NCBI GenBank assembly: GCA_947168565.1
Contig: CAMVMM010000010.1
Location: 9,278 to 73,277, forward strand
From: an uncultured Clostridia bacterium
Lineage (GTDB): Bacteria; Bacillota; Clostridia; Christensenellales; CAG-138
DNA length: 64,000 nucleotides
Direction of reading: 5' to 3'
Made by a program: the position numbers and the translations under genes. A model generated the notes under the pieces. That model was not told the DNA's origin and made no database searches. It was given only the letters and a program-made list of their open reading frames with translations. Positions 7,104 through 53,072 of this stretch are shown piece after piece (the first letter of the stretch is position 1; every line of letters begins with the position of its first letter).

Positions 7104-7229
7104 GACCGTGACTGTATATGCGGTATACCGGAACCGAAGCTCAGGCTTCGGCAGGGGAGTAGGCTTTAAAAGCGCCGAAAACCGGTATCCGCTCTGCACC
7201 ATGGTCAAAAAAATACTTTGGAGGAATAT
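7104..7229 (+). promoter_or_regulatory. structured 5' leader of unknown class
   Basis: Outer helix GCGGTATACCGG (7120-7131) / CCGGTATCCGC (7182-7192) encloses hairpin CCGAAGC-tcag-GCTTCGG (7134-7151). The leader ends at RBS GGAGG (7220-7224). Confidence 0.35.
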
Positions 7230-32044: not shown

Positions 32045-34015
32045 TTGAGTTTATCAAAAGCAAAACTGCGCTTTGCCGCGCTAATCATGGCTGCGGCGAT
32101 CGCGGCAGGCTCGATTTCGGGCTGCGCGAACGTGCCCGCTTCAACGAACACGCCCGCGCCCGCTCCAACCGAGCAGACACAGCACACCGACCCGCCCGAG
32201 GAGGCGGGGGGAACACCGATAGTAACCTTTATTCCCGAAGACACGGGCTTGCCGAGTGAGGCTCCAACCGATGAGCCGACGGTGGAGCCCACCGAGGCGC
32301 CCACCGAGGCGCCCACAAAGGAGCCGGTCACGGAGGAGCCCAAGCGCACCGAGCCGACTTCCGCCCCCACGCCGAGCGTTACGCCCGACGCGGACGGCTT
32401 CTACCCCGTGGATTGGGCAACGGGGCATATAAACGCTCCCTACGTTAATTTCAGAGCCGCCCCTTCGCTTGATTCGGTCATCTATTCCGAGCTGACGCGA
32501 GGCACGGAGGTGAATGTGACGGGCGAAAGCGCCGATTGGTACCGCGTGCGCCACGAGGGCATTCGCGGCTATATCGCAAAGCCCTATCTCACCGTGGCGG
32601 GGCAGACCCCCATGCCGGAGCTGCCCACGGAGGATCCGTTTGCGCCTGTTGCAAACAGAAACGCCTACGCAAACAGGGAAATTGTGAATATGCGCGCCGA
32701 GCCCTCCACCGATTCGGATATAGTTGAGGAATTGAGCTACGGCACGAGCGTCACCGTTTACGGCGAATCGCCGGAATGGTACAGGGTCAAGCGCGGCGCA
32801 AAGAGCGGCTACGTTAAAAAGCCGTATCTCACCTACGGCTCGCTCGAAACGCAGGCGCCCGAAACCACCGCGCCGAACGTGACCGCAGCTCCCACGACCA
32901 CCCCGAGGCCTACGGCGACTCCCACGCCGGGACCCACGGCAACGCCGACCCCGAGACCCACGGCAACGCCGACCCCGAGGCCGACCCATACCCCCGCGCC
33001 CACGAGCGAGCCGTTCGTGCCGATGAACAACGTGACGGCATACACGAACAGGGCGTACGTCAACTTCCGCTCCGAGCCCTCTACCGAATCGGAGATAATA
33101 CGCATCCTCACCTACGGCACGCAGGTAACGGCGCTGGCGCAGACGAGCGAATGGTACCGCGTCCGGTGCGACGGCACGGTGGGCTATATCGCAAAGCCCT
33201 ATCTCACCCTCGGCACTCCGGCAACGCCCACGCCGAGACCCACGAGCGCGCCCACGCAGACGCCCAGGCCCACGCAAACGCCCAAGCCCACGCCCACGGC
33301 GGATCCCGATCCCTTCGTTGGCACGGACAACATGGCGGCGTACGTGAACGTGCAGCGCGTGAACTTCCGCTCCGCGCCGAACACCAATTCGGATATCATC
33401 GCCGTGCTTACCTACGGCACGGAGGTGCGCGTTACCGCGCAGAACAGCAAGTGGTACCGCTGCACCCACGGCGGAAGAACGGGCTATATAGCCAAGCAGT
33501 ATCTCACGCTCGGGCATTATGACCCGCCCGCGCCCACTCCGGCGCCCACTCCCGCGCCCACGCCAACCCCCAACCCCGGCGGGCATTATTTCACCGACTA
33601 CGAGATCCATCTCGTTGCGGCGCTCTGCCACATGGAGGGCCCCGGCAGCACCTACGTGGGCTACCGCGCGATCGCAAGCGTTGTTTACAACCGCGTTATG
33701 AATCAGTCCGGGCATTTTCCAAACACCGTTGTGGGCGTGCTGCTGCAGCAGAATCAGTTCGGCAACCGTCCGCTCTGGCTGTTTGAAAACACGCAGCCCA
33801 ATCCCGTGGCGCAGGCCTCCGCGGAGTACGTTTTCAGAACCCACGGAAGCACGCTGCCGCCCAAGGTGCTGTTTTACCGCGCGGTGTGGTGCGGCATTCC
33901 GTGGTATGATTTCACGGAATACTATGCCACCATCGAGGCAAACAACTACTACTACGGCATACTCTATTACGACGTGGAGCCGGGCGCGGCCGCTCCGGTG
34001 ACCATGGCGGAATAG
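32045..34015 (+). CDS. lipoprotein with four SH3b domains, Pro/Thr linkers and a C-terminal SleB-type cell-wall hydrolase domain
   Basis: TTG start. Signal plus lipobox (AAGSISGC). Four copies of VNxRxxPSxxSxI...GT.V.V...WYRV...G.GYI.K.YLT. C-terminus LVAALCHMEG...RAIASVVYNRV...VLLQQNQF (Hydrolase_2-like). Confidence 0.88.
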   Translation: MSLSKAKLRFAALIMAAAIAAGSISGCANVPASTNTPAPAPTEQTQHTDPPEEAGGTPIVTFIPEDTGLPSEAPTDEPTVEPTEAPTEAPTKEPVTEEPKRTEPTSAPTPSVTPDADGFYPVDWATGHINAPYVNFRAAPSLDSVIYSELTRGTEVNVTGESADWYRVRHEGIRGYIAKPYLTVAGQTPMPELPTEDPFAPVANRNAYANREIVNMRAEPSTDSDIVEELSYGTSVTVYGESPEWYRVKRGAKSGYVKKPYLTYGSLETQAPETTAPNVTAAPTTTPRPTATPTPGPTATPTPRPTATPTPRPTHTPAPTSEPFVPMNNVTAYTNRAYVNFRSEPSTESEIIRILTYGTQVTALAQTSEWYRVRCDGTVGYIAKPYLTLGTPATPTPRPTSAPTQTPRPTQTPKPTPTADPDPFVGTDNMAAYVNVQRVNFRSAPNTNSDIIAVLTYGTEVRVTAQNSKWYRCTHGGRTGYIAKQYLTLGHYDPPAPTPAPTPAPTPTPNPGGHYFTDYEIHLVAALCHMEGPGSTYVGYRAIASVVYNRVMNQSGHFPNTVVGVLLQQNQFGNRPLWLFENTQPNPVAQASAEYVFRTHGSTLPPKVLFYRAVWCGIPWYDFTEYYATIEANNYYYGILYYDVEPGAAAPVTMAE

Positions 34016-34099: not shown

Positions 34100-34287
34100 C
34101 CTTGAGTATGCCGAATCCGTCCGAATCGCATGCTCTCTCTAATGCCGCTGCTTTACCAACCACGCAAAGCCCGAATCCGCAAGCGGAAAGGGGGAGGAGG
34201 CGGAGAGAGGCGCAAACGGGGCAAAGAGGGGGCAGTAACTGAAGCAAAAAGGCGGGCCTGATGGAATGCGAACCGTAAAGCGGGCGC

Positions 34288-34321
34288 AAAAAAGAGCGGC
34301 ACGCGAATCTGCGCGCCGCTC
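34288..34321 (-). terminator. intrinsic terminator after the surface-protein gene
   Basis: Minus strand reads GAGCGGCGCGC-agatt-CGCGTGCCGCTC followed by TTTTTT. Confidence 0.75.
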
Positions 34322-34346
34322 CATTCATGATTTAAGCTCTATCGGT

Positions 34347-35552
34347 TCAGTTCTTCTTCCTGCGGGAGAAGAGCACTGCCGCGCCGGAGACCGCCGCCGC
34401 GATGCCCGCGAAGGCAAGGCTTATGGTTCCGGTTGCGGGAACGGGAACAGGGGTGGGAGCCGCGGTGGGCTCTGCGGGGGCCTGCGTGGGCTCTACGGGA
34501 GCATCGGTGGGCTCTGCGGGAGCCTCGGTGGGCTCTGCGGGAGCATCGGTGGGCTCTGCGGGGGCCTGCGTGGGCTCTACGGGAGCATCGGTGGGTTCGG
34601 CGGGGGCCTGAGTGGGCTCGGGCTCGCCGTTCGCGCCGAAGTTGTAGGGATACTCAAAGGTGTAGTGCTCGCCGCTGCCGATGAAATCCTCATCGGTGAA
34701 GCTCTGCTGATCGTATTCGATGCCGAAGGTTTCATGCACCACGGAGAAGATGTCCGAAAGGCTCTGGAAGGTGGTGCTCTCGGGATCGATGATGGGATCG
34801 CCGCCCCACTCCTCGAAGTTGTTGTCCACGGGAATGAACGAGGAGGGTGCGCCGCCCTCAAGCTCCATGCGGAAATAATGGTTGTTCAGCGCAACGAAGA
34901 TGCTGCCGGGGCGAAGCTCCACGGCGCGCTTCTGAACGAGCATAAAGTCGGACCAATGCACGTTGTAGCAGCCCTCGCCGGTCCTCTCCACGATCTTCTC
35001 ATAGAAGGTGGCGGGGAACTCGTGCTGACCGATGGTAACACTCATGCTGCCGGTAACGTGATCGGCGGTCGCGGTGCCGCGAACGACGACGGAAACGGTT
35101 CTGCCAAGCTGTGCCATAACGCGCAGCGTGGTGCCCTCATGGGTGATATTTGCATATTCGCCGGGAACGGGCACGCAGATGCCGATCTCATAGTCGCAGT
35201 TGAGAAGGGGATCGCAGCCGGTGGCCTCAACGAGCTGGATCTCGTCGATGCCGTTTATCTCGGTAATGTACTCGATGCTGCCGAGAAGCTGCTCGCTGTA
35301 GCCCTCAACGCTTGCGGGCACGGCGTAGGAAAGCACCATGGTCACGGTGTCGCCCACCGCGATGGGGGCGTTTGCCGCCATGGGGGTCCAAACGTTGTAG
35401 GGAACCTCCCACTCGTCGTATTCAACGGTGGGATCGTTTTCAACGCGCACAAAAGCGGTTTCGAAGATGGGTGCCTGCTCGGATGCGAAAGCGGGGATGC
35501 CGAGAGCGGCGATCATCGCAAAGGCAATGAGCAGTGAAAGAAACTTTTTCAT
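34347..35552 (-). CDS. cell-surface protein with heptad Pro/Thr/Ala repeats and a sortase-type C-terminal sorting signal
   Basis: Signal peptide. C-terminal (EPT[QDE]AP[AV])n repeats, then PVPATG followed by the hydrophobic stretch TISLAFAGIAAAVSGAAVLF and SRRKKN. Confidence 0.8.
   Translation of the reverse strand: MKKFLSLLIAFAMIAALGIPAFASEQAPIFETAFVRVENDPTVEYDEWEVPYNVWTPMAANAPIAVGDTVTMVLSYAVPASVEGYSEQLLGSIEYITEINGIDEIQLVEATGCDPLLNCDYEIGICVPVPGEYANITHEGTTLRVMAQLGRTVSVVVRGTATADHVTGSMSVTIGQHEFPATFYEKIVERTGEGCYNVHWSDFMLVQKRAVELRPGSIFVALNNHYFRMELEGGAPSSFIPVDNNFEEWGGDPIIDPESTTFQSLSDIFSVVHETFGIEYDQQSFTDEDFIGSGEHYTFEYPYNFGANGEPEPTQAPAEPTDAPVEPTQAPAEPTDAPAEPTEAPAEPTDAPVEPTQAPAEPTAAPTPVPVPATGTISLAFAGIAAAVSGAAVLFSRRKKN
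34464..34622. repeat. about 7.5 tandem copies of a 21-nt repeat inside the surface-protein gene
   Basis: GGTGGGCTCTGCGGG(A/G)GC(C/A)TC units. These encode the EPTxAPx heptads on the minus strand. Confidence 0.9.
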
Positions 35553-35615: not shown

Positions 35616-36638
35616 TTATGCAACCTTGCTGCCGGTATTTTCCTGCTCGGGCGCGGCAGCCTTCTTTTTGCCGAAGCCGGCGCAGATCGCGTGATGCGGG
35701 CAGGCCGCCTTGCAGTCGCCGCAGCGGATGCACTCAAGGCTGTTCGGCGTTTTTACGATGTCCACACCCATGCGGCAGGCGTGACGGCACGCGCCGCAGT
35801 TGGTGCATTTGGATTCATCCACGCTGTAGCGGTACAGCGAGATGCGGTTGAAGAAGGAATAGATCGCGCCGAGGGGGCAAATATATTTGCAGAACGGGCG
35901 ATAGATGAAGATGGAGCCCACGAGCAGCGCGGTCATGATGGAAAGCTTGAGGATCGTGAGGCCGCCCGCCTCCGCCCAGCTCGTGATGCCCGTGCCGGTG
36001 CCCTGGCCGAGGTTTCCGAAGATGGAGCCGTAGGTCATGAGCGGAATGCCGCCTATCAGCATGCCGGAGGGGCAGATATACTTGCAGAAGAAGGGGTTGG
36101 GCTCGTACAGAAGCGGCAGAATGATGACGAAAACCACAAGGAAGAAATACTTGAGGTATCTCAGCGGCTTGTCGCCCGGGAAGGTGCGTATCTTCATCTT
36201 TTTCGGAACGGGGATCTTATAGATAAGGTCCTGAATAAGTCCGAAGGGGCAGAGGAAGCCGCACACGAGCCTTCCGCACAGCGCGCCGAACATCATCAGA
36301 AAGCCGACCACGTAGAACGCGAAGTAGTACATCGGGGGCGCAACGGCGGTGCCGGTCTTTGCGTCGAACCAGAACTTGCTGTATTCGCCCTGATTGAACA
36401 CGGCCTGAAGCGCGCCGATGGGACATGAGCCCAGAGCGCCGGGGCAGGAGTAGCAGTTCATGCCGGGAACGCAGACCTGCTTCAGCTTGCCCTGATAGAT
36501 CGTGCCCTTCAAAAAGCCGACGATGTAGCTGTTCGTAAGAATGCTGAACGCGGCCTGGATGCCTATCCTTCTGCGCTCAACGCTCTTGCGGAGCTGAGCA
36601 ATCGTTTTCTTGGGTTTATTGCTTGCTTTAACTTCCAT
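35616..36638 (-). CDS. polytopic NapH/NosR/MauN-like 4Fe-4S polyferredoxin membrane protein
   Basis: Four CX3CP motifs (CYSCP, CGFLCP, CKYICP, CKYICP) interleaved with TM segments. C-terminal CTNCGACRHAC and CIRCGDCKAACP ferredoxin motifs. Confidence 0.85.
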   Translation of the reverse strand: MEVKASNKPKKTIAQLRKSVERRRIGIQAAFSILTNSYIVGFLKGTIYQGKLKQVCVPGMNCYSCPGALGSCPIGALQAVFNQGEYSKFWFDAKTGTAVAPPMYYFAFYVVGFLMMFGALCGRLVCGFLCPFGLIQDLIYKIPVPKKMKIRTFPGDKPLRYLKYFFLVVFVIILPLLYEPNPFFCKYICPSGMLIGGIPLMTYGSIFGNLGQGTGTGITSWAEAGGLTILKLSIMTALLVGSIFIYRPFCKYICPLGAIYSFFNRISLYRYSVDESKCTNCGACRHACRMGVDIVKTPNSLECIRCGDCKAACPHHAICAGFGKKKAAAPEQENTGSKVA

Positions 36639-36639
36639 A

Positions 36640-36831
36640 TCAACCTATCCCCACGCATTCGCGGCAGAGCGCCACGGCCTTTGAGAGAACCGCGTTTATC
36701 TCGCCGTCCTTGATTCCGATTATCAGAAAGAGAACGCCGAGCGCGAACACGGCGGCGGGCACGATATAGCGCAGCGCGCCGCGGTCGAGAGGGCAGCTCT
36801 TTTTAACAATGGGCTTGCTTGTGTTTGCCAT
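36640..36831 (-). CDS. 63-aa single-TM CXXC protein (resembles 'CD1871A family CXXC motif-containing protein')
   Basis: One TM segment (YIVPAAVFALGVLFLIIGI) and C-terminal AVALCRECVGIG. Its stop lies 1 nt from the polyferredoxin start codon. The family name is recalled from annotation practice, not verified. Confidence 0.65.
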   Translation of the reverse strand: MANTSKPIVKKSCPLDRGALRYIVPAAVFALGVLFLIIGIKDGEINAVLSKAVALCRECVGIG

Positions 36832-36845
36832 AGCTCATCCTTTCT

Positions 36846-37808
36846 TTACGGCAGCAGCCTGTCGATGATGGCGCACCAGCCCTCGAAGGTGTTCGCGGCG
36901 GGCACGCGCTCAACTATGCGGCCGTAGGAGTCCACAAAATAGGTCATGGGATACGCCGTTGCCGGGAATGCCGCCGCCACGGAGGCGTTGTTTCTGATGA
37001 CCGGAATGGTGAAGCCCATGCCGTTCATAATGCCGATGGCGGTGGGGATCGCGCCGGGGGTCTCGGAATCGCCCAGTATGGAGAGGATCCTGAAGCCTCT
37101 TGCGCCGTATCTGCTCTCAAGCTGCGCAAAATGCGGCATTTCCTGGATGCACGGGCCGCAGGTGGTGGACCAGAGGTTTACCATGGTGAGCCTGTTTGCA
37201 TAGAGGAAGCTGTTGTCATAGGTTGCCTGATTGCCGTTTATCGCCTTGGAGGAGAAATTCGGTATATCGGGCTTGGGCGTGGCTGTGGGCGCCGGAGTGG
37301 GCGCGGGGGTGGGCGTCGGAGCCGGAGTGGGCGCCGGTGTGGGCGTGGGCCTCGGGGTCGCCGTGGGCGCCTGCGTGGGCACGTCGGTCGGCTTCGGCGT
37401 GGGTGTGCCAGCCGCGGGATTGCCCGTGGGCGGATTCGTTGCCGGCGGGTTGGTCGCGGGCGGGTTGGTTGCGCTCGAGGGGGTGCCGCTCGGCTGCTCG
37501 CTCGCCGGTTCGTCGCTTTGCGGAGCTTCGCTGTCCGGCGGTGTGGTATCCTCGGGGCCCTCGCTCTCGGGAGCATCCGAATCCGCAGGCTCATCCGAGG
37601 GCTGCCCGCTCTCGGGAGGCTCGGTGGTTTCACCCTCGGCGGTGGGGGAGGGCTCCTCGGAATCCGCGGGCCCGTCGGTGACGAGCCCGGGATCGGGGGT
37701 AGCCGGATTGGGGTTGGGCGCTATCCTCCAGGGGTGCGCGCAGCCCGTGAAAAGCAGAGCCAACGCAAGCATTATGCACAGCGTTATGCCAATGTTTTTC
37801 CTAAGCAT
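36846..37808 (-). CDS. lipoprotein TlpA/ResA-family thiol-disulfide oxidoreductase with a long Pro/Thr/acidic linker
   Basis: Lipobox LLFTGC. About 170-aa low-complexity linker (TNPPATNPPATNPP...TPAPTPAPTPTPAP). Trx fold with WSTTCGPCIQEMPHF. Confidence 0.88.
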   Translation of the reverse strand: MLRKNIGITLCIMLALALLFTGCAHPWRIAPNPNPATPDPGLVTDGPADSEEPSPTAEGETTEPPESGQPSDEPADSDAPESEGPEDTTPPDSEAPQSDEPASEQPSGTPSSATNPPATNPPATNPPTGNPAAGTPTPKPTDVPTQAPTATPRPTPTPAPTPAPTPTPAPTPAPTATPKPDIPNFSSKAINGNQATYDNSFLYANRLTMVNLWSTTCGPCIQEMPHFAQLESRYGARGFRILSILGDSETPGAIPTAIGIMNGMGFTIPVIRNNASVAAAFPATAYPMTYFVDSYGRIVERVPAANTFEGWCAIIDRLLP

Positions 37809-37857
37809 AGTCCGTCCTTTCGGAAAGGGGGGAACGGCTGAAAGCCTTTATATAAGC

Positions 37858-39033
37858 TTACAGGCCGAGCGCGGTGCGCAGCGCGAGGATCGCATCCTCC
37901 ATGCCCACGGAGCCGTTGCCGCTCATATCCGCGATGGGCAGAACAGCGCCGTCGACCCCCGCAAGACCCATCGCCATGCGCAGGATGGTTATGGCGTCCG
38001 AGGTGGTAACGCTGCCGCTGTTGTCCACGTCGCCGGGCACGAAGGAGGCCTGCTCGTAAACGGTGTAGATGTTCATATTGCCGGTCACGAAGCTGAAATC
38101 CTGATCCCAGCCCACGAAGGTGTAGCCCTCGTGCTCGGGCGCTTCGGGCGCGGTGGCGGCGGTGCCGTAGTCAACCATGCCCTGGGTTATTATGGTGTTC
38201 GTGATGCTGTCGTAGAAGCGAACGAGGAATCTCTGAATGTTGTAGCTGCCGTAAACCGTGGCGTCGCCCATGGCGATGTAGTAGTAGGGATCGTAGTGGG
38301 TAACGAGAATGTTTTCATCTATCTGGTGGTTGGGGTTGTCGGGGTTGATCTCCCAGCCGTTGAAGGTGTAGCCCTCGATCGCGGGGCCCTCGGGCATGGT
38401 GATGAGTCCGCCGTAGGGCACCTCAAGGGTGGTGAGCACCTCGTCGTTCGCCTTGTTTTTGAAGGTGATGGTGCAGTTTTCGCCCTGATGGTTGCGCACC
38501 ACGTCAAGCCACATGTCAACGTAATCCTTGAGCATATTGTAGCTGGGGAAGGAGCCCACGATGTGATCGAGCACAACGCCGTTGCGGTCAACGATCAGCG
38601 TCTGGGGAATGTAGCCGCTGGTGCTGAAAACGGAGCGGAGCACGCCGTCAAGGCGCATATTGAGCCATTTGTAGTCGCGCTGATTGAGGAATGCAAGCGC
38701 GGACTGCGGAGTGCAGCCGTTGGACTCGGAGATGGCGGCAACGACCTGAACGCCGTAATCCGGATTATCAAGGGAATACTGATAGAGCTGATTGATATGC
38801 GGCATTTCGTTCACGCAGGGGCCGCACCAGGTTGCCCAGTAGTTGAAGAAGGTGATATCCGCATTATCGAGGATGGAGCCGTCCACGGGGTTGCCCTCAA
38901 GGTCGGTGGTGCTGAAGTTTGCAATGCTCATTCCGAAGCCCGCGCGGGTCGCGTCCTCGGGCTTGGCCGCTGCAAAGGAGAAAGCGCTTACTGCAAGAAG
39001 TGCCGCAAGCATAAGGGAGATGAATTTTTTCAT
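37858..39033 (-). CDS. secreted TlpA-type thioredoxin fused to two GYTFxGW (Listeria-Bacteroides type) repeats and a C-terminal dockerin
   Basis: Signal peptide. WATWCGPCVNEMPHI. EGYTFNGWE and EGYTFVGWD repeats. GDVDNSGSVTTSDAITILRMAMGL / ADMSGNGSVGMEDAILALRTALGL. Confidence 0.88.
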   Translation of the reverse strand: MKKFISLMLAALLAVSAFSFAAAKPEDATRAGFGMSIANFSTTDLEGNPVDGSILDNADITFFNYWATWCGPCVNEMPHINQLYQYSLDNPDYGVQVVAAISESNGCTPQSALAFLNQRDYKWLNMRLDGVLRSVFSTSGYIPQTLIVDRNGVVLDHIVGSFPSYNMLKDYVDMWLDVVRNHQGENCTITFKNKANDEVLTTLEVPYGGLITMPEGPAIEGYTFNGWEINPDNPNHQIDENILVTHYDPYYYIAMGDATVYGSYNIQRFLVRFYDSITNTIITQGMVDYGTAATAPEAPEHEGYTFVGWDQDFSFVTGNMNIYTVYEQASFVPGDVDNSGSVTTSDAITILRMAMGLAGVDGAVLPIADMSGNGSVGMEDAILALRTALGL

Positions 39034-39122
39034 GGCTGTGTTCCTTTCGGCAATTTATTGTACGCTGAAAAGCCGGGCTCGGCGTTGGGAGCGCCGCTCT
39101 CACCCCTTTACGTACATTCAAT

Positions 39123-39151
39123 ATTATATCAGATACCATGACACAAAGCAA
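39123..39151 (-). promoter_or_regulatory. sigma-A type promoter of the thioredoxin/polyferredoxin operon
   Basis: Minus strand reads TTGCTT - 17 nt - TATAAT, about 90 nt upstream of ATG 39033. Confidence 0.55.
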
Positions 39152-42392: not shown

Positions 42393-44087
42393 ATGAAGAT
42401 CTCGAAAAAAACGAAAAGGCTGCTCTCCCTCATCCTCGCGGCTGCGCTTATCGTGTGCGCACTTCCGGCTTTTGCCTCAAACGAAGGAAAAGCCGCGCTG
42501 TCGATGCGAAAAAACGGCGCTTTGGATGCGGCGAATCTGAACGAGGCGCTGAACATTCCGGGCGGAAGCCTCGCCTTCCAAACGAGCTCGGATTACCCCT
42601 GGGTGGTTGACGGCGATATTGCCGTAAGCACCAATTCCGGCGTGCCCTCCAGCACGTCATCGGTGTGGACGAATATCACCGCCGCGGAAGGGGATATGCT
42701 CTGGTTCGATTTCTGGTCCCTCGGAGAGGGCACGGAGTATTTCTTCGACGGCCTTCAGCTTATTATCGACGGCAGCGTGCAGGCCCAATGGGGGCAGACG
42801 CAGAGCTGGGCAAGCTACATCTGCCCGCTCGCACCTGGTGCGCACGAGATACGCTTTACCTATTTTAAAGATTACAGCGTGGATGAGATCTACGACCTTG
42901 CCATGCTCGATAACGTGTACGTCGGGCCGCCGATAATGCCCGAATCCATCACGGTTCTCCCCGTAAGCGTTCCGGTCGGCAAAAGGGCAAACCTGAATTA
43001 TACCGTGCTGCCCGAGTACGCGCATGATATAAGCTGCGATTTTTCCGTGGAAAACTCGGCTGTTGCCTCCGTGGATGAAAACGGCGTTATAACCGGCGTG
43101 TCGGTCGGCAGCACCACCGTCACCGTCACAAGCCGCGCGAACCCTTCCGTTTACGGCACGGCGAGCGTTACGGTCACGGAGGCGGTGAGCTCCGTGGAGC
43201 TCGAGGGCTTCGCGCTGATGGATTTTGATTCAGATAATCTGACAGGCAATTGGATAAGATTTTTCGACCACGACCCCTCGTTCGTTGAAGCCACGGCGAA
43301 CATGGGCAAGGATACCTACGGCGCGGCGTATTATAACGGGAATGTGTACGGCTATCTGTATGATGCGAACGATACGCGCTTTTTCGTGATGGATGCCGAA
43401 ACGCATGAGATCACCTATCCCGGCGCAAGCAGCGGGGCCGACGTATGGGTGCGCGCCATGGCGTACAACTATGCGAACGACACCATGTATGCAATAGTGA
43501 ACAATTCGCTTGCGGCGGTGGATCTTTCCACCGGCGGGCTGAGCGTGATAGCGAATCTCAGCGGCGCGGTGGACGACGTGATGACCTTTGCGATAGACGG
43601 CGAGGGCAACGCCTACGGTTTGACGCTCAATTCGCTTCAAACCACGCTCGTTCGCATAGATCTTGAAACCGCCGTATGCACCGCGATAGGCGGGCTGGGC
43701 GCGGGCCTGAACTTTGCGCAGAGCATGACCTGGGATCACGGCACAAACAGGCTTTACTGGGCGCATGAGCTGGACGTTTCGGACAGCGGGCTGTATATTA
43801 TCGACGTCGACACCCTCGAGCTTACGAGCTGCGGCACCATCGGCAGGCAGGGTATGGAGATCTCCTGCCTTTTCACCACGAGCGAGCCGGGCGGCGGCGC
43901 GCTTGCGGGCGATGCGGATCTGAACGGCAGCGTCAGCATAGCGGACGCGATCCTCGCCCTGCGCCACGCGATGGGCCTCAGCCAGCTTTCGGGTCAGGGC
44001 TTCATCAATGCGGACGTGGATAATAACGGCTCCGTTACCACCGCGGACGCAATAATGATACTGCGCATGGCGATGGGATTGGCGTAA
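42393..44087 (+). CDS. secreted protein: jelly-roll-like N-module + Big_2 Ig-like domain + propeller-like region + dockerin
   Basis: Signal peptide. Big_2-like ITVLPVSVPVGKRANLNYTVLP...VTGVSVGSTTVTVTS. C-terminal GDADLNGSVSIADAILALRHAMGL / ADVDNNGSVTTADAIMILRMAMGLA. Confidence 0.85.
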   Translation: MKISKKTKRLLSLILAAALIVCALPAFASNEGKAALSMRKNGALDAANLNEALNIPGGSLAFQTSSDYPWVVDGDIAVSTNSGVPSSTSSVWTNITAAEGDMLWFDFWSLGEGTEYFFDGLQLIIDGSVQAQWGQTQSWASYICPLAPGAHEIRFTYFKDYSVDEIYDLAMLDNVYVGPPIMPESITVLPVSVPVGKRANLNYTVLPEYAHDISCDFSVENSAVASVDENGVITGVSVGSTTVTVTSRANPSVYGTASVTVTEAVSSVELEGFALMDFDSDNLTGNWIRFFDHDPSFVEATANMGKDTYGAAYYNGNVYGYLYDANDTRFFVMDAETHEITYPGASSGADVWVRAMAYNYANDTMYAIVNNSLAAVDLSTGGLSVIANLSGAVDDVMTFAIDGEGNAYGLTLNSLQTTLVRIDLETAVCTAIGGLGAGLNFAQSMTWDHGTNRLYWAHELDVSDSGLYIIDVDTLELTSCGTIGRQGMEISCLFTTSEPGGGALAGDADLNGSVSIADAILALRHAMGLSQLSGQGFINADVDNNGSVTTADAIMILRMAMGLA

Positions 44088-44313: not shown

Positions 44314-45585
44314 CTAAATACTCTTTTCGCTGTTCACAAGGCGGGCGAGCGCTTCGCCGGCAGCGGCAACGTCCTCGGCGGTTATCTCCTGCGCGGAATA
44401 GCGAGCCTTAATATAGAGCGCGCGCAGAGCCTCGTCCGTTTCGCCATATAGCACGGGGCGCGAAAGGCCGGAAATATCGCCGCTGGTATCCGCAGAGGTT
44501 CTCGTTATGCCCCTGACGCGCAAAAAATCGAGGTAGCGGCGGTAGATGCCGCGAATCGCGTCCGCATTGGTCTTTTCCGCGCGGGCGCTTCTTCTGCGTA
44601 GCCTTGTGAACAGGCGCGGCCTTTGCGCGGGAAGGGCTTCGCCGCGCTCCGGGGAGGTATCGTCAAGGAAGGTGCGCTCGTGCTTTTTTGCCCTTAAAAG
44701 CCGGATAATAAGCGCCGTAAGCACCACGGCGGCAATAAGCGCTATTGCCACAGCCGTCCAGTTTATCGATTTCAGATCCACAAGCGGCGCAAAGCCCGCG
44801 TCCTCGGGAAGCGAGCCGGGATGGACGGGCTCCGGTTCGGCGGGGGAGGCGGATGCGTCCGGCGTCGGCTCCGGCGTTGGCGCGAAGTCGGCTTCAAACT
44901 CCTTGAAGGGCGCAAGCAGCGTTCCCAAAAGCTTCGTTATAAGCGAAATAAGCAGCATTATGGGATAAATCAGCGCGGCGAAAATACTTGAAAGATACGG
45001 CGCGATGAGCGTCAGCAGCACGCCGAGCACCGCGCCCGCAAGTATCGCCGCCAGATACCAGCCAATGATGCCGCCCTGCCACCGTGCGGAGCGAATATTT
45101 CCGGCGCGAAGGGTGCGCAGGGAGAGAAAGCCGAAAAAGAAGAAGCCGGCGGCAAAGGCAATGCCGGCAATATAGCTTGCCCGCCAGCCATCATCCGTGA
45201 GGTTTGGGGAATAGGAAAGCAGCGTATATGCGCTTACCACCGTTACGGCAGCGGCGACGGGCTTGAAGGTGCGTAAACAGCGCCACGCCTCGCCGTAAAA
45301 CCTGCCGAACGCAAGATAGATGCTGCAGCACACAAGCGGTATTCCCGCAGTGATGACGGATGAAAGCGAGGAAAACAGCGTCAGCGCGCAATAGGGAAGA
45401 AGCGAGATCAGGAGCCGCAGCGCCGCTTTTTCAACCTGCACCGCAGCAAGGCACGCGGGAAGCGCAAGCAGCACTATCGCCCCGCAGAGCGGGTAATCCG
45501 CCGCAGGCATGAGCCGCATAAGCACTGCAGGTATGAAATACGCGCACATATACGAAACAAGGCGAAACGCCGCTGAATTTCTCAT
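44314..45585 (-). CDS. polytopic membrane protein with C-terminal DUF4129-like domain (paralog B)
   Basis: About 8 TM segments, then a cytoplasmic tail IRGIYRRYLDFLRVRGI...ALRALYIKARYS (DUF4129-type). Paralogous to the next gene. Confidence 0.8.
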   Translation of the reverse strand: MRNSAAFRLVSYMCAYFIPAVLMRLMPAADYPLCGAIVLLALPACLAAVQVEKAALRLLISLLPYCALTLFSSLSSVITAGIPLVCCSIYLAFGRFYGEAWRCLRTFKPVAAAVTVVSAYTLLSYSPNLTDDGWRASYIAGIAFAAGFFFFGFLSLRTLRAGNIRSARWQGGIIGWYLAAILAGAVLGVLLTLIAPYLSSIFAALIYPIMLLISLITKLLGTLLAPFKEFEADFAPTPEPTPDASASPAEPEPVHPGSLPEDAGFAPLVDLKSINWTAVAIALIAAVVLTALIIRLLRAKKHERTFLDDTSPERGEALPAQRPRLFTRLRRRSARAEKTNADAIRGIYRRYLDFLRVRGITRTSADTSGDISGLSRPVLYGETDEALRALYIKARYSAQEITAEDVAAAGEALARLVNSEKSI

Positions 45586-45696: not shown

Positions 45697-46959
45697 TCAT
45701 GAATCGTTTCCGCGCCGATTCTCTCTGGCCGTGATCCGATCGAACGCCCGCTCCGCAAGGGAAACCTCCTCGTCGGAAAGCTCCTCCTCGTTGTACCGCG
45801 CTCTGAGGTACAGCGCGCGCAGAAGCGCGTCCGGCTCCTCATCCAAAAGCATTTCGCTTGAGCGCTCCGAAAGCTCAAGGCTCGTGGTGCTGACGCCGGT
45901 AGAGATGCCGTTCATGCGCAAAAACGCGATGTAGCGGCGGTAGAGCTCGCGCACCTTATCGGCGTTTCCAAAGCCCTTTTTCTTTTTGCTGCGGCGGGAG
46001 GCGGAGCCGTTTTCAAGCCGCTCATGCTCCTTTATGCTGTCGTCATCTATAAGCTCCGCCGCCCTTTTCCTGCGGCCCTTTTTTATAAGCAGCACGGCGA
46101 GCACGGCGGCAAGCGCGGCGCCGATTGCGGCGATAAGCAGGAGCGGGATCCGGCGCGCTTGATCCCCGTCGACCCTTTTTTGAGGGGACGTGGAGGAGGG
46201 GGCGTATTCCCATTCATCGTCCGCCATGGGCGCGGCGGTGCTCATGTGGATGGGCAGATGGTCTATCGGAATGGGGGTGGTGGAGGGGCGCGGCTGACGC
46301 TCCGCGGTGGAGCAGCTTGCTATCCTTGAAGCAAGGCTCTCTATCGGCGTTTTAAAATCCGTATTGCGCATAAACGAGCCAAGCCCGATGCCCGCGGCTA
46401 TGCCGAGCGCAAGGGGCAGCGCCAAAAAGCCGATGTTGCCCGCCTGCCAGCGCGCGCTTTTTATATTGCCGGCGCGAGCGCAGCGCAGCGCAAGCAGCCC
46501 CAGCGCTATCGCCGCGATGAGGAAAACCATGAACGCGCTTTTTGCCGCGTCCTTCGGATGGGTCAGATGCGCGTAGGCGTAGAATATGAAAAGGGAAACC
46601 GCGAAAAGCAACGCAAGCAGCGCGGCGATCCATTTAAACTCGCTCAAATAGCGCCACGCGGGAATATCGAACCTTGCGGCGATCATGGAGGCCGCCGAAT
46701 AAACGCAGATCACGGAGGCGACTATCAGCGCGGCGGGCGTTTTGGGCACGAGCAGCAGCCCCGCGAAGGGCAGCAGCGCGAAAAGGACGCGCAGAAGGGT
46801 GTTTTCCGTATGCGCCGCAAGGAGCGAGGCAATCAGTATCAGCGCCGTGACCGCGAAAAAGCCGATGCAGCTATCCTGCATCAGCGGGGGAATGAGCGCG
46901 GCGGCGCAGAAATACACGCAGGCGTGTATCGTAAGGCGGAAAGCGGCGGCGTTTCTCAT
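45697..46959 (-). CDS. polytopic membrane protein with C-terminal DUF4129-like domain (paralog A)
   Basis: Same architecture. Shared N-terminus MRN(A/S)AAFRL, and VRELYRRYIAFLRMNGI...LLRALYLRARYN. Its start overlaps the DUF58 stop by 4 nt. Confidence 0.8.
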   Translation of the reverse strand: MRNAAAFRLTIHACVYFCAAALIPPLMQDSCIGFFAVTALILIASLLAAHTENTLLRVLFALLPFAGLLLVPKTPAALIVASVICVYSAASMIAARFDIPAWRYLSEFKWIAALLALLFAVSLFIFYAYAHLTHPKDAAKSAFMVFLIAAIALGLLALRCARAGNIKSARWQAGNIGFLALPLALGIAAGIGLGSFMRNTDFKTPIESLASRIASCSTAERQPRPSTTPIPIDHLPIHMSTAAPMADDEWEYAPSSTSPQKRVDGDQARRIPLLLIAAIGAALAAVLAVLLIKKGRRKRAAELIDDDSIKEHERLENGSASRRSKKKKGFGNADKVRELYRRYIAFLRMNGISTGVSTTSLELSERSSEMLLDEEPDALLRALYLRARYNEEELSDEEVSLAERAFDRITARENRRGNDS

Positions 46960-49242: not shown

Positions 49243-50673
49243 ATGAAAAAACACAGCACCCTTAAAGCCGCCCTCGCGGCCGTCCTCGCAGCGCTGATGG
49301 CGTTTGCGGTTTTCCCTGTCTCGGCAATGCCGAGCCTTGAAACGGAAAATACGGCGAATAATGTTGAGCCCTACTGGACCGTTCCGGAGGGATATGATCC
49401 GTATGATTACAATAAGTGCGCCGCCTTCCTTGAACAGGCGGATGTAAACGGAGTAAAGAACGGACAGAAGCTGAATCCGAACTACGATCCTAACGATCCG
49501 GACACTTGGGTTGCGGGCTCGTTTTCCTTGATTGATGAAAACGATCTTTATGATGAAAGCGGCTGGAGAGAGTGGTTCAACCCCGATGGTGGCGGTATTC
49601 AGTGCCCGATGCATATGCTTTATGACGAAATTCAGATCGGCTTTGGCTGGTATGACTGTGGGTATTATGCGGGTGGCGTCAAGCATGTCAGAACCATTGT
49701 GATCCCCATCTTAGGTCGTATTTATGAGAAAAACGGCCGAAATAATCCATACATAAATGAGGAGACGGACTGGGATCTTGCAGGAAGCATGGATTTCAGC
49801 GGCATGGAATGGTTGAACAATTTCATCGTTCACAGCGTATATGGCCGCGAAGGATATACTTGCTATGAGGCTATAAACTCGATAGATCTGTCAAATTGCG
49901 ATCAGCTTAGCGTGGTGTGCTGCCTGGATAGCAGCGTGACCGAGCTGAATCTTGCCGGTGATCGAAATATCCTTTGGCTCGACTGCTATTTGAGCGGCAT
50001 TGAGGGCGGGCTTGATATTTCTGCGTTGGAAGAATCAAATTCAAGCACCCCGCATTTGGACTATCTGAATATTATGGGCATGGCGCTCACGGAGTTTGAA
50101 TTCCCGCATATTGGTATAGAGAACTTGAGGTGCGGAGGGAACTTTTTTGATTCGCTGGATCTTTCCAATCTTACTTATCTACATGAATTCTGGGATAATT
50201 TTGATGGTCCGGATTGGGATTCTGATTACCTGGGACTTCAGGAGTTAAAGTACTGCGGCCGCATCTGCCGCGTTGAGGGGAATGGAAACATACATCGTGT
50301 GGAATATTTGTATAGCGAGATCGAGGAATGCTGGTTCAATGATAGTATTTCGGTCATCAGCTATGATTCAACCGACTTTGCCGGATGGTACGATGAGAGC
50401 GGAAATCTGCTTTGCGAGCAGACCACACTCTATTTTGATGAAGGCGCAACCGGTGTGTTTATCGCAAAATTCGTATCGGAGGAGGAGCCCATCCCCGGCG
50501 ACGTGGACGGCGACGGCGAGGTCACCGCGCTGGACGCGCTTTCGATAATGCGCCTGCTTGTGAGCGAAACGGACGGCAGCGATATGAACGTGGACGCCGC
50601 CGATATGAACGGCGACGGCGTGGTGGATATTCTGGACGCGCTGCTCGCGCTGCGCATGGCTATCGGCGCGTAA
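49243..50673 (+). CDS. secreted leucine-rich-repeat protein with C-terminal dockerin
   Basis: Signal peptide. LRR-like units (IDLSNCDQLSVVCCLDSSVTELNLAGDRNILWLDC..., LDLSNLTYLHEF). GDVDGDGEVTALDALSIMRLLV / ADMNGDGVVDILDALLALRMAIGA. Confidence 0.82.
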   Translation: MKKHSTLKAALAAVLAALMAFAVFPVSAMPSLETENTANNVEPYWTVPEGYDPYDYNKCAAFLEQADVNGVKNGQKLNPNYDPNDPDTWVAGSFSLIDENDLYDESGWREWFNPDGGGIQCPMHMLYDEIQIGFGWYDCGYYAGGVKHVRTIVIPILGRIYEKNGRNNPYINEETDWDLAGSMDFSGMEWLNNFIVHSVYGREGYTCYEAINSIDLSNCDQLSVVCCLDSSVTELNLAGDRNILWLDCYLSGIEGGLDISALEESNSSTPHLDYLNIMGMALTEFEFPHIGIENLRCGGNFFDSLDLSNLTYLHEFWDNFDGPDWDSDYLGLQELKYCGRICRVEGNGNIHRVEYLYSEIEECWFNDSISVISYDSTDFAGWYDESGNLLCEQTTLYFDEGATGVFIAKFVSEEEPIPGDVDGDGEVTALDALSIMRLLVSETDGSDMNVDAADMNGDGVVDILDALLALRMAIGA

Positions 50674-50803: not shown

Positions 50804-50832
50804 TTGACAGCCCGCCCGCAGGGTGGTATTAT
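50804..50832 (+). promoter_or_regulatory. sigma-A type promoter (extended -10)
   Basis: TTGACA - 17 nt (ending TGG) - TATTAT. Confidence 0.6.
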
Positions 50833-50861
50833 TAGAAATATATCAAACTCAGGAGGCATTT

Positions 50862-53072
50862 ATGAAAAAGCTGCGTTCCCTTTGCGCCGTGCTTGCGGCG
50901 GTTCTTATTATGGCGGCATTCGTGCCGGCGGCGCTTGCAGCAGCTCCCTCGGACGGCGCTGCTGATTACCAAATAGTGCCCGCTGCGGGCGACGGCGTTT
51001 CGCTTTCATACGATGAAAGCGCATTCAGCCTCAGGCTGCTGCCGATGTACGGCCTTTTGCGCATAGAGGAGAATAAAACCCTCACCCTGACCGCAAGCTT
51101 TGAGGAGGGGTGGAGCTATAACGGGCAGTACACCAATTTCTTTCGCTCTCATTCGGAGCGCGTCAGCGTTTCAAACGGCGCGAACGGCGCAAAGGTTTTC
51201 ACCTTCAGCGCGGTGCGCGGCGAGTTTTTGACCGAGGATGAGCTCTGCACCGTGGGCATCTACGCTTCCCCGGCGGAGCTGCCCAGGCTTTCCATCACGG
51301 CGGAGCTGCCCTTTTCGCAGATAGATAAGCAAACCTGGGTGAATGCAAGCTTCACGCTCACCCTCGGCACGAAGCGGTTTTCAAGCGGCGATTTTGAGGG
51401 CACCGGCGCAATCAAGGGCAGGGGCAACACCTCCTGGGGGCAGCCGAAAAAGCCCTATTCCATAAAGCTGGATTCCAAAAAATCACTTCTGGATATTCCC
51501 AAAACCAAGAAATACGCGATAGTTCCCGGTTATTCCGATCCTTCGTTTATCCGCAATTACATGACCTATAAGGCGGGGCTGATGCTGGACGGCATAGGCT
51601 ACGTGCCGAAATGCGAATTTGTTGAGGTTTATCTGAACGGCAGCTACAACGGCATATATCTGCTTGTGGAGCGCGTGGATATAGAATCAAACAAGATAGA
51701 TATCGAGGAGGCCACGACGGACGAGCTGACCGGCGGCTACCTTATTGAAAAGGACGTGCGCGATAAGATAGATTTTTCAAGCGATCTGTGGTTCGATTGC
51801 CCCTATTGGGCGAATCAGGGGCAGGATTATTTCGTGCTGAAGGCGCCCGAGCCCGATGATGCGGCGCTGGCGGACCGTATGAGGCAGTACCTTGCCGCGC
51901 ACATGGTGAAGGTGCATAATGCGATAACGGGCGCAAGCTCCGAAAGCTACACGCAGTACGTGGACACAGCCTCGTGGATAGACTTCATGATAGTGCAGGA
52001 GCTTTCCAAGAATATAGACGGCAATATGAAAACAAGCTGCTATATGTATAAGCAGGCGCAGGACGATAAGCTTTACTTCACCGCGCCGTGGGATTTCGAC
52101 CTTGCGTACGGCAACCCCGAGACCACGTGGAACAACGCGGACTATACCCATAACGATTATTACGACTGCCCGGACGCGACCGGCACGGCGGATTTCATGG
52201 CGATAAACAGCTCCGCCCCGTGGTTCGACAGGCTCTATGACGATCACGAGGAGTTCCGCACCGCGCTGATGGAGAAATACGCGGAGTACAGGCGCAGCAT
52301 GATCCCCGCAATGATGGCCATGATGGATTCGCAGGGCGCGTACCTTTCCGCCGCTATGCCGCGGGATGAGGCGCTCTGGCACAGGGGCTTTCATCAGGGG
52401 CTTGCGGCGCTTCGAAGCTGGTTCGCCGGCAGGGTGGCGTGGCTTGATTCGCAGTGGATCGAAAGCGAGCCGATAGACCTTGATTTTGCGCTCAACCGCG
52501 AGGGCGGCAGCCTGCACTTCGTTACCTCGCAGCAGCATCCCTTCACGGGAGCCGTGGCGGACGGCAGGATAGCGGCCGTCAGCGGCATAGCGGGTGTGGA
52601 CGGTGCGCATTCAAGCCTGACGCTCACCCTCGATATGCTGGAGGGCGAAACGCTGAGCTTCGAGCATAAATACAGCACCGAGCCCGGCTACGATAATTTC
52701 ACCTTCGCCGTGAACGGCGAGAACCGCTTCACCTATTCCGGCTCGGCGGACTGGCAGAGCTACACCTTCACTGCGGATCGGAGCGGGAGCTATACCTTTG
52801 AATGGAAGTATGAAAAGGATGGTTCCGTGGGCAGCGGAAGCGACTGCGTGTGGATAGACGAGGTCGCGTATTCCGGCGATCAGCTCGGCGCGCTTGCGGG
52901 CGATGCGGACGCAAACGGCGTGGTGAACGTGGCGGACGCGCTGCTCGTGATGCGCTGCGCCATGGGGCTTGAAAGCTCCGTTCCATCGTTTAATAATGCG
53001 GATATGGACGGGGACGGCGAGCTGACCATGGCCGATGCGGTGGCGATACTGCGCATGGCGCTTGAGGCGTAG
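50862..53072 (+). CDS. secreted CotH kinase-fold protein with C-terminal jelly-roll-like module and dockerin
   Basis: Signal peptide. GRGNTSWGQPKKPYSIKLD and YLNGSYNGIYLLVERV (CotH). GDADANGVVNVADALLVMRCAMGL / ADMDGDGELTMADAVAILRMALEA. RBS AGGAGG precedes ATG 50862. Confidence 0.88.
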   Translation: MKKLRSLCAVLAAVLIMAAFVPAALAAAPSDGAADYQIVPAAGDGVSLSYDESAFSLRLLPMYGLLRIEENKTLTLTASFEEGWSYNGQYTNFFRSHSERVSVSNGANGAKVFTFSAVRGEFLTEDELCTVGIYASPAELPRLSITAELPFSQIDKQTWVNASFTLTLGTKRFSSGDFEGTGAIKGRGNTSWGQPKKPYSIKLDSKKSLLDIPKTKKYAIVPGYSDPSFIRNYMTYKAGLMLDGIGYVPKCEFVEVYLNGSYNGIYLLVERVDIESNKIDIEEATTDELTGGYLIEKDVRDKIDFSSDLWFDCPYWANQGQDYFVLKAPEPDDAALADRMRQYLAAHMVKVHNAITGASSESYTQYVDTASWIDFMIVQELSKNIDGNMKTSCYMYKQAQDDKLYFTAPWDFDLAYGNPETTWNNADYTHNDYYDCPDATGTADFMAINSSAPWFDRLYDDHEEFRTALMEKYAEYRRSMIPAMMAMMDSQGAYLSAAMPRDEALWHRGFHQGLAALRSWFAGRVAWLDSQWIESEPIDLDFALNREGGSLHFVTSQQHPFTGAVADGRIAAVSGIAGVDGAHSSLTLTLDMLEGETLSFEHKYSTEPGYDNFTFAVNGENRFTYSGSADWQSYTFTADRSGSYTFEWKYEKDGSVGSGSDCVWIDEVAYSGDQLGALAGDADANGVVNVADALLVMRCAMGLESSVPSFNNADMDGDGELTMADAVAILRMALEA

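Follow-up and report, generated by a model that had tools for sequence, protein, structure and literature searches.

An operon of exported thioredoxins, a small CxxC membrane protein, and a NapH-like polyferredoxin in Clostridia: a candidate iron-sulfur-driven trans-membrane disulfide reductase

Little is understood, to our knowledge, of the means by which strictly anaerobic Gram-positive bacteria hold exported proteins in the reduced state, and the locus described here raises the question of what could recharge exported thioredoxins (Trx) that are not encoded beside a CcdA or DsbD. ResA, TlpA, DsbE, and Etrx are exported reductases normally recharged by CcdA/DsbD, and CGPC is the classical reducing active site. 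In a 64-kb stretch of DNA from an uncultured Clostridia bacterium (64,000 nucleotides of contig CAMVMM010000010.1, here called the window), two genes for exported thioredoxins (genes 1 and 2) lie in an operon with a gene for a 63-amino-acid (63-aa) CxxC protein (gene 3, the mini-protein) and a gene for a NapH-like polyferredoxin (gene 4). On balance, gene content and predicted topology favor a module that would act as an iron-sulfur (Fe-S)-driven trans-membrane disulfide reductase, feeding exported thioredoxins and functionally replacing CcdA/DsbD. A preliminary description of this DNA had suggested that the polyferredoxin and the mini-protein may form an alternative trans-membrane electron conduit. 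The linkage of the genes and their predicted topology, given below, speak for that suggestion, while its electron direction and chemistry are put forward here as proposals.

In Pfam searches, the polyferredoxin matched Fer4_5 (PF12801) over two stretches, with 69.9 bits against a threshold of 22; Fer4 and Fer4_7 matched as well, and the C-terminal part is a di-cluster 2x[4Fe-4S] domain. The membrane domain holds ten cysteines and consists of four repeats on alternating membrane faces, each a transmembrane (TM) helix (predicted at residues 13-43, 105-129, 156-177, and 220-244) followed by C-x3(6)-C-P-x-G. Four CX3CP motifs had been counted in the preliminary description; three of them (C126, C185, and C250) are canonical motifs of the membrane domain, and the fourth pattern match, at C309, belongs to the tail of ferredoxin motif 2. 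The additional repeat, the first, carries the variant C62-x2-C65-P-x5-C72-P. Both ferredoxin motifs that had been noted are present, one ending in CP as described and the other in CR. Across the family, 18 cysteines are invariant in 81/81 sequences. Those of repeats 2 and 4 (C126/C130 and C250/C254) and the eight ferredoxin cysteines align with Escherichia coli NapH and YccM, whereas C56, C62, C65, C72, C185, and C189 are absent from NapH and YccM, which keep only the prolines there.

The CX3CP motifs of NapH are cytoplasmic according to published topology work. Given the homology with NapH, repeats 1 and 3 of the window protein are predicted to face outward, with the six invariant cysteines that NapH lacks on the outer face. 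This topology was derived from the alignment to NapH and YccM, from charge statistics, and from N-terminally extended variants. Strong positive charge is found in the segment ahead of TM1, in loop 2, and in the segment that follows TM4, with loop 3 neutral, and natural variants with an added N-terminal TM-ectodomain-TM unit retain the positive segment before TM1; from this charge pattern and the extended variants, the segment before TM1 is predicted to be cytoplasmic. The helix at residues 190-211 was not taken as a fifth TM helix because it is polar in other members of the family. Foldseek and PDB sequence searches with the polyferredoxin matched its ferredoxin domain and not its membrane module, which leaves no solved structure of a NapH-type membrane module for comparison. 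Long polyferredoxin variants were also considered as possible fusions and set aside, as their extensions are DUF5684 or TM-ectodomain-TM units without a CxxC.

The mini-protein matches NCBIfam NF040920, named "CD1871A family CXXC motif-containing protein," over residues 28 to 63 (46 bits against a cutoff of 32), has a single TM helix at about residues 22 to 40, and ends in CRECVGIG. An exhaustive profile search placed 552 representative clusters in its family. At the loci compared, C[LM]EC[IV]G[IL]G almost always forms the very C terminus of these proteins, charge bias gives an N-in/C-out orientation in 95% of cases, and the CxxC is predicted to lie on the outer face. Rather than all being cytoplasmic, the mini-protein CxxC and the six subfamily-specific cysteines of the polyferredoxin would therefore share the outer face with the tethered lipoprotein thioredoxin. 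About two dozen polytopic membrane proteins of 245 to 300 aa (for example, P0258, P0260, P0261, P0271, and P0275) likewise end in a TM helix followed by AVxICTECIGLG at the C terminus, so the CxxC tail also terminates a larger uncharacterized membrane family. These polytopic proteins, which are otherwise unrelated, account for the long mini-domain matches that we had considered as candidate Trx-mini or mini-polyferredoxin fusions.

Both thioredoxins have the fold, the canonical CxxC, and the export signal of the TlpA/ResA/DsbE type. The product of gene 2, which is the conserved thioredoxin member of the module, has a lipobox, a Pro/Thr linker of about 170 aa, and a Redoxin domain (41.7 bits against 26.6) with the active site WSTTCGPC; the closest solved relatives of its Trx domain are ResA, DsbE, Etrx, and TlpA. 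The product of gene 1 has a signal peptide and a Redoxin domain (34.2 bits against 26.6) with the active site WATWCGPC, whose closest solved relatives are ResA, TlpA, and DsbE. It also matches AhpC-TSA and two Flg_new repeats above cutoff, the latter corresponding to its GYTFxGW motifs. Neither protein reached the equivalog-level ResA or TlpA cutoffs. The architectures that the preliminary description gave to the products of genes 1, 2, and 3 thus agree with the domain searches, the C-terminal dockerin of gene 1 being a weak match.

A pattern scan for polyferredoxins with the loop-1 cysteine motif, counting one genome per species, found this subfamily in at least 598 species genomes, including those of Clostridioides difficile, Blautia, Dorea, Roseburia, and Coprococcus. 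Gene neighborhoods were counted at the best 80 species loci, where all open reading frames (ORFs) were searched with hidden Markov models for which the window and three metagenomic loci supplied the sequences. A mini-protein gene was present at 79/80 loci and lay directly upstream of the polyferredoxin gene at 76, and a Trx-fold gene was present at 69/80. The CxxC is kept in 75 of the 76 neighboring Trx genes, mostly as CxPC, with CGPC the commonest form. The flanking genes are otherwise unrelated from locus to locus, and the linkage of the three families is thus strongly conserved. No Msr, flavin mononucleotide (FMN)-binding, ApbE, reductase, metal-transport, or cytochrome gene recurred beside the module at the 80 loci, and no Pfam domain was found in the extensions of the longer Trx proteins.

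These loci span Lachnospiraceae, Oscillospiraceae, Christensenellales, C. difficile (locus L029), and Eubacteriaceae, and they include a Selenomonadales genome and two spirochete metagenome-assembled genomes (MAGs). The full triad outside Clostridia was observed in Treponema sp. (L040), Spirochaetaceae (L051), and Selenomonadales of the Negativicutes (L034). Its presence in spirochete and Negativicutes genomes at about 47 to 50% identity suggests that the triad may have spread horizontally as a unit. The only other widespread neighbor is a gene for a receiver (REC) plus RelA/SpoT protein, at 22/80 loci, of which the identified ones are Lachnospiraceae. It encodes a 362-aa protein with a receiver and a small alarmone synthetase domain (for example, L042:4045-5133) and lies directly upstream of the Trx-mini-polyferredoxin module. 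This adjacency could reflect lineage synteny or a regulatory link.

The operon had been described as using the polyferredoxin and mini-protein "instead of" CcdA/DsbD. We ran phmmer with E. coli DsbD as the seed against all ORFs of the window and of 85 loci, and no ORF of the DsbD superfamily was found in the 64-kb window, where the multi-TM ORFs encode PnuC, Bax1-I, glycosyltransferases, and DUF proteins. A single DsbD relative lies near the module in the set of 80 species loci, at L059. It is a fusion of a heavy-metal-associated (HMA) domain with DsbD_2 (L059:7128-8537, minus strand), divergent from the module, in an Oscillospiraceae MAG. Since this match was confirmed by Pfam, it serves as a positive control that phmmer can detect clostridial relatives of DsbD. 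DsbD relatives are not linked to the module at the window and the loci. The "instead of" is therefore supported locally, for the window and the loci that this search covered.

In the mechanism that we favor, a cytoplasmic low-potential donor, most plausibly the ferredoxin of fermentative anaerobes, would load the C-terminal 2x[4Fe-4S] domain of the polyferredoxin. Electrons would then reach the inner-face pairs C126/C130 and C250/C254, which NapH also has, and would cross to the outer-face cysteines of repeats 1 and 3 (C56, C62, C65, C72, C185, and C189). A dithiol/disulfide relay through the mini-protein CxxC could pass them to the CGPC of the lipoprotein thioredoxin, which would hold the thiols of exported proteins reduced. 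In the window's clade, two added genes would contribute a surface-displayed dockerin-Trx and a sortase-anchored client. We infer that the core is a two-subunit membrane complex of polyferredoxin and mini-protein that works with the lipid-anchored thioredoxin; complex formation, the direction of electron flow, the donor, and the state of the membrane motifs (cluster or thiol) all belong to this inferred part of the scheme. A wider proposal, which we regard as quite possible while leaning slightly away from it, is that the polyferredoxin/mini-protein pair may form a third class of trans-membrane disulfide reductase, with a mechanism distinct from those of DsbD and CcdA, in which a NapH-type scaffold would pass electrons from one-electron Fe-S carriers to an outer dithiol as a membrane-spanning analogue of ferredoxin:thioredoxin reductase.

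Several points weigh against an outward-directed, Fe-S-driven reductase. Its basis is comparative genomics and predicted topology. Cluster insertion on the outer face would be unexplained if the outer motifs bind Fe-S. The net charge of loop 1 is +3.2, which weakly contradicts a location outside, and the AlphaFold2 (AF2) model of the polyferredoxin is poor, with a predicted local distance difference test score (pLDDT) of 63 from a 25-sequence alignment, so that the geometry of the outer cysteines is unreadable in it. The mini-polyferredoxin pair occurs without a nearby Trx gene at 10 to 11 of the 80 loci, which makes this pair the tightest unit of the module. No gene for a cytoplasmic donor recurs in linkage with the module at the 80 loci. 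Finally, CcdA may sit elsewhere in these genomes, the search having covered the window and the loci.

The same genes could be read as running the other way, with the Trx lipoprotein oxidizing secreted cysteine pairs and the mini-protein and polyferredoxin reoxidizing it by carrying electrons inward, as an analogue of DsbB or VKOR. We consider this unlikely. It would fit the invariant C119 and C126 of the anchored protein (gene 5, below), which flank a beta-hairpin as a structural disulfide might; actinobacterial pilins need MdbA and VKOR to fold, and neither in the window nor at the 80 loci did a quinone-linked DsbB or VKOR appear near the module. The active sites, however, are CGPC or CxPC, the closest relatives are ResA, TlpA, DsbE, and Etrx rather than DsbA, and low-potential [4Fe-4S] ferredoxin domains would be a poor sink for the electrons of a thiol oxidase. 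Moreover, the triad is widespread, whereas only one clade has the anchored client.

Another reading gives the polyferredoxin some other output, such as CcoG-like metal reduction or extracellular electron export, in which the mini-protein and the TlpA-like protein would only assemble or protect an outer cysteine or metal site. Members of the NapH-like superfamily do serve many outputs (PMC8238504), the mini-polyferredoxin pair occurs without an adjacent Trx gene at about 10 of the 80 loci, and the sole DsbD_2 neighbor, at L059, bears the heavy-metal-associated domain. We nevertheless find this account distinctly unlikely, because no reductase, FMN-binding, ApbE, metal-transport, or cytochrome gene recurs near the module at the 80 loci and a thioredoxin is its only conserved extracytoplasmic partner. 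That the mini-protein might be a precursor of the RiPP type (ribosomally synthesized and posttranslationally modified peptide), modified by the Fe-S protein and handled by the thioredoxin, seems highly improbable. A short ORF whose product has a conserved cysteine motif at its C terminus, beside a gene for an Fe-S protein, is what this account would have, yet the TM helix of the mini-protein is conserved and has a positive-inside bias, its C-terminal module is shared by larger polytopic membrane proteins, the cysteine motifs of the polyferredoxin are those of a classic ferredoxin and include no radical S-adenosylmethionine CX3CX2C motif, and linkage to a peptidase or exporter gene was not found at the 80 loci. 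All three alternatives agree less well than an outward-directed reductase does with the type of active site, the conserved TM topology, and the fact that no other output is linked to the module.

Table 1. Features of the operon and its borders in the window
Feature	Position	Strand	Basis or remark
Promoter	39123-39151	minus	Read by eye; consensus match, putative
Gene 1, TlpA/ResA-type thioredoxin	37858-39033	minus	ORF list
Gene 2, lipoprotein thioredoxin	36846-37808	minus	ORF list
Gene 3, mini CxxC protein, 63 aa	36640-36831	minus	ORF list
Gene 4, NapH-like polyferredoxin	35616-36638	minus	ORF list
Gene 5, sortase-anchored protein	34347-35552	minus	401 aa
Intrinsic terminator	34293-34322	minus	12-bp stem with 9 G-C pairs, then a T-run

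The coordinates of the four minus-strand genes and the gaps of 49, 14, and 1 nucleotides (nt) between them are as the preliminary description had them, the 1-nt gap being that between the mini-protein and polyferredoxin genes. So is the promoter, with the -35 element TTGCTT at 39151-39146, a 17-nt spacer, and the -10 element TATAAT at 39128-39123; in addition, a TG before the TATAAT makes this an extended -10 promoter. It was missing from the output of the consensus scanner because the -35 element matches the consensus at just 3/6 positions. Every gene of the operon has an ATG start and a Shine-Dalgarno-like sequence, and an Rfam scan of the operon and its leader found no RNA family. The earlier extent of the operon proved too short, as a fifth gene had been overlooked. 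Gene 5 begins 63 nt downstream of the polyferredoxin gene, and the locus is a five-gene operon that includes it, since no terminator is predicted in the 63-nt gap and the sole strong minus-strand terminator (34322-34293) is located after gene 5.

Gene 5 encodes a secreted sortase substrate by its match to TIGR01167 LPXTG_anchor (19.9 bits against 15.9), with Pfam Gram_pos_anchor at 19.2, slightly under its cutoff of 20, and no Pfam or NCBIfam family other than the anchor was matched. In an alignment of 27 sequences of its family, the PxTG is conserved, with P372 invariant and T374 and G375 present in at least 90%, and so are the cysteines C119 and C126, both without exception, and C113, almost without exception. 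The family is small (about 30 clusters) and unannotated. Among the 80 loci, gene 5 was found only in the window's clade, where all the close relatives examined (L001 and L003-L009) have it in synteny, with 34 to 44% identity at the loci compared directly. Its AF2 model is confident and mostly beta (block-mean pLDDT 78 to 96 over residues 31 to 310). Foldseek matches to this model are weak (E value of about 1e-3, TM-score of about 0.2) and include ClfB, the C domains of AgI/II, GBS80, and SpaD; the top matches are mostly Gram-positive wall-anchored adhesins or pilins. From these matches and the conserved residues, gene 5 likely encodes a beta-sandwich adhesin- or pilin-like protein that is a dedicated, clade-specific client of the thioredoxins through its trio of cysteines. 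We also considered a thioester-domain adhesin and rejected it, since its motifs disagree with those of the protein and no thioester-domain protein is named among the top fold matches listed.

The second addition in this clade is gene 1, a second thioredoxin, with a candidate dockerin. In the window protein, the Dockerin_1 match is weak (17.5 bits against 22.9), and two DxDxxGxxxxxD-like loops can be seen by eye; confident dockerin matches occur in its L001 orthologue and its L009 paralogue. Orthologues of gene 1 were found in L001, L006, L007, and L009. No cohesin is encoded within the 64-kb window, and at L004/L005 and L009 a gene for a membrane-anchored cohesin lies immediately upstream of the gene for the dockerin-Trx. 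One dockerin-Trx paralogue (L004:4177-4866, also present at L005) lacks the CxxC, having WATWSAESC in its place, and may be a redox-dead scaffold or adaptor. Dockerins are also present on at least four other secreted proteins encoded in the window: a subtilase that has PA and Cleaved_Adhesin domains (7218-11228), a protein with Big_2 (42393-44087), a protein with no further domain match (49243-50673), and a CotH kinase-like protein (50823-53072). Because so many proteins share it, the dockerin is this organism's general device for surface display, and on a thioredoxin it is confined to the window's clade. The tag noted in the preliminary description is a clade-local feature in an organism where many secreted proteins have dockerins. 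Cohesin-dockerin display in this organism is a noncellulolytic use of the system.

Other features were observed in the window. On the plus strand, converging on the operon, 32045-34015 encodes a 656-aa lipoprotein in which Pro/Thr linkers join four bacterial SH3 domains and the C-terminal part is a SleB-type cell wall hydrolase domain. The coding sequence for Pro/Thr linkers, in this gene and in the operon, coincides with long spurious antisense ORFs, for example, at 37231-39141 and 34266-35537 on the plus strand. Two tandem genes on the minus strand (44314-45585 and 45697-46959) encode paralogous membrane proteins of about 420 aa with 8 predicted TM helices, for which only weak DUF4129 and DUF2339 matches were found.

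If a ferredoxin-driven reductase of the outer face is indeed encoded here, it would link fermentative redox metabolism to the chemistry of surface proteins and tie extracellular thiol redox to the ferredoxin pool in C. difficile and in dominant gut Clostridia. It would also provide a first clue to the function of the CX3CP motifs of NapH, NosR, and RdhC, long without an explanation. In the window's clade, the candidate client and the dockerin-displayed thioredoxin suggest that redox maintenance is directed at one particular surface adhesin. More speculatively, oxygen tolerance, adhesins, sortase, and sporulation proteins could be influenced.

The preliminary description knew of no earlier account of this gene arrangement. 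The gene content, at least, has since been described: the mini-protein family has an NCBIfam entry (NF040920, above), and a preprint posted on bioRxiv on 7 November 2025 presents "a novel operon" of 4Fe-4S, CxxC, and TlpA genes in seven gut species, with Blautia wexlerae as the dominant carrier; it notes the TM segments, offers the speculation that extracellular targets are reduced by the operon without giving a mechanism, and ties operon abundance to immune-related adverse events in melanoma immunotherapy (PMC12637426). These are the same three gene families as in the window, and L032 is a B. wexlerae example among our loci. The preprint reports the operon as a biomarker, without topology, comparison to NapH or CcdA, or an analysis of distribution, and the window version adds the dockerin-Trx and the sortase-anchored client. 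Database names for the three core genes are generic only, and literature searches on CD1871A, Fer4_5/PF12801, polyferredoxin plus TlpA, and the C. difficile loci found nothing mechanistic. What appear to be new here are the comparison with NapH, the six outer-face cysteines, and the four-repeat architecture, as well as the breadth of distribution, the independence from DsbD, and the five-gene variant with its candidate client.

Among known systems, those of CcdA/DsbD likewise have exported or lipid-anchored CxxC thioredoxin reductases encoded beside the membrane protein presumed to recharge them. In contrast to CcdA and DsbD, the window membrane protein has no match to PF02683 or PF13386 and is not a member of the DsbD superfamily; it has instead a 2x[4Fe-4S] domain, ten membrane-domain cysteines, and a separate single-pass CxxC subunit, and its donor is probably ferredoxin rather than a cytoplasmic thioredoxin. 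The extracytoplasmic thiol-disulfide oxidoreductase linked to cysteine-bearing sortase-anchored proteins has a counterpart in the MdbA/VKOR-dependent folding of pilins in Actinobacteria. That pathway is oxidative and quinone linked, whereas the window thioredoxins have the reductase-type active site CGPC and an Fe-S protein as their membrane partner. Ferredoxin:thioredoxin reductase and HdrB-type enzymes offer a functional analogy only, in that one-electron Fe-S carriers drive two-electron reduction of a disulfide; they are soluble, and the window sequence has none of their CPC, CHC, or CCG motifs and no detected similarity to them.

The closest known kin of the polyferredoxin are NapH, MauN, YccM, NosR, RdhC (PceC), and CcoG, which share with it four TM helices and CX3CP after TM2 and TM4; the C-terminal di-cluster ferredoxin domain is common to the window protein and most NapH-like members and is lacking in RdhC. 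Over 207 aa, the window protein and E. coli NapH share 26% identity, and the window protein falls well under the family cutoffs for NapH/MauN (TIGR02163, 54.1 bits against 213) and NapH (NF007013, 42.2 bits against 234). Unlike NapH and MauN, it is encoded in an operon without NapG, NapA, MauM, or mau genes, none of which recurs at the 80 loci. Méheust et al. (2021) found NapH-like modules coupled to flavinylated proteins, not thioredoxins (PMC8238504); in contrast, the proteins of the window operon have no FMN_bind or ApbE match, and such genes are not recurrent neighbors of the module. The role of CX3CP in NapH, NosR, and RdhC proteins is unexplained, and in a study of PceC thiol/disulfide chemistry was favored because NosR holds at most 8 Fe (PMC5928378). 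Against this background, what sets the window protein apart from other NapH-like modules is a set of six additional invariant cysteines, predicted to lie on the outer face.

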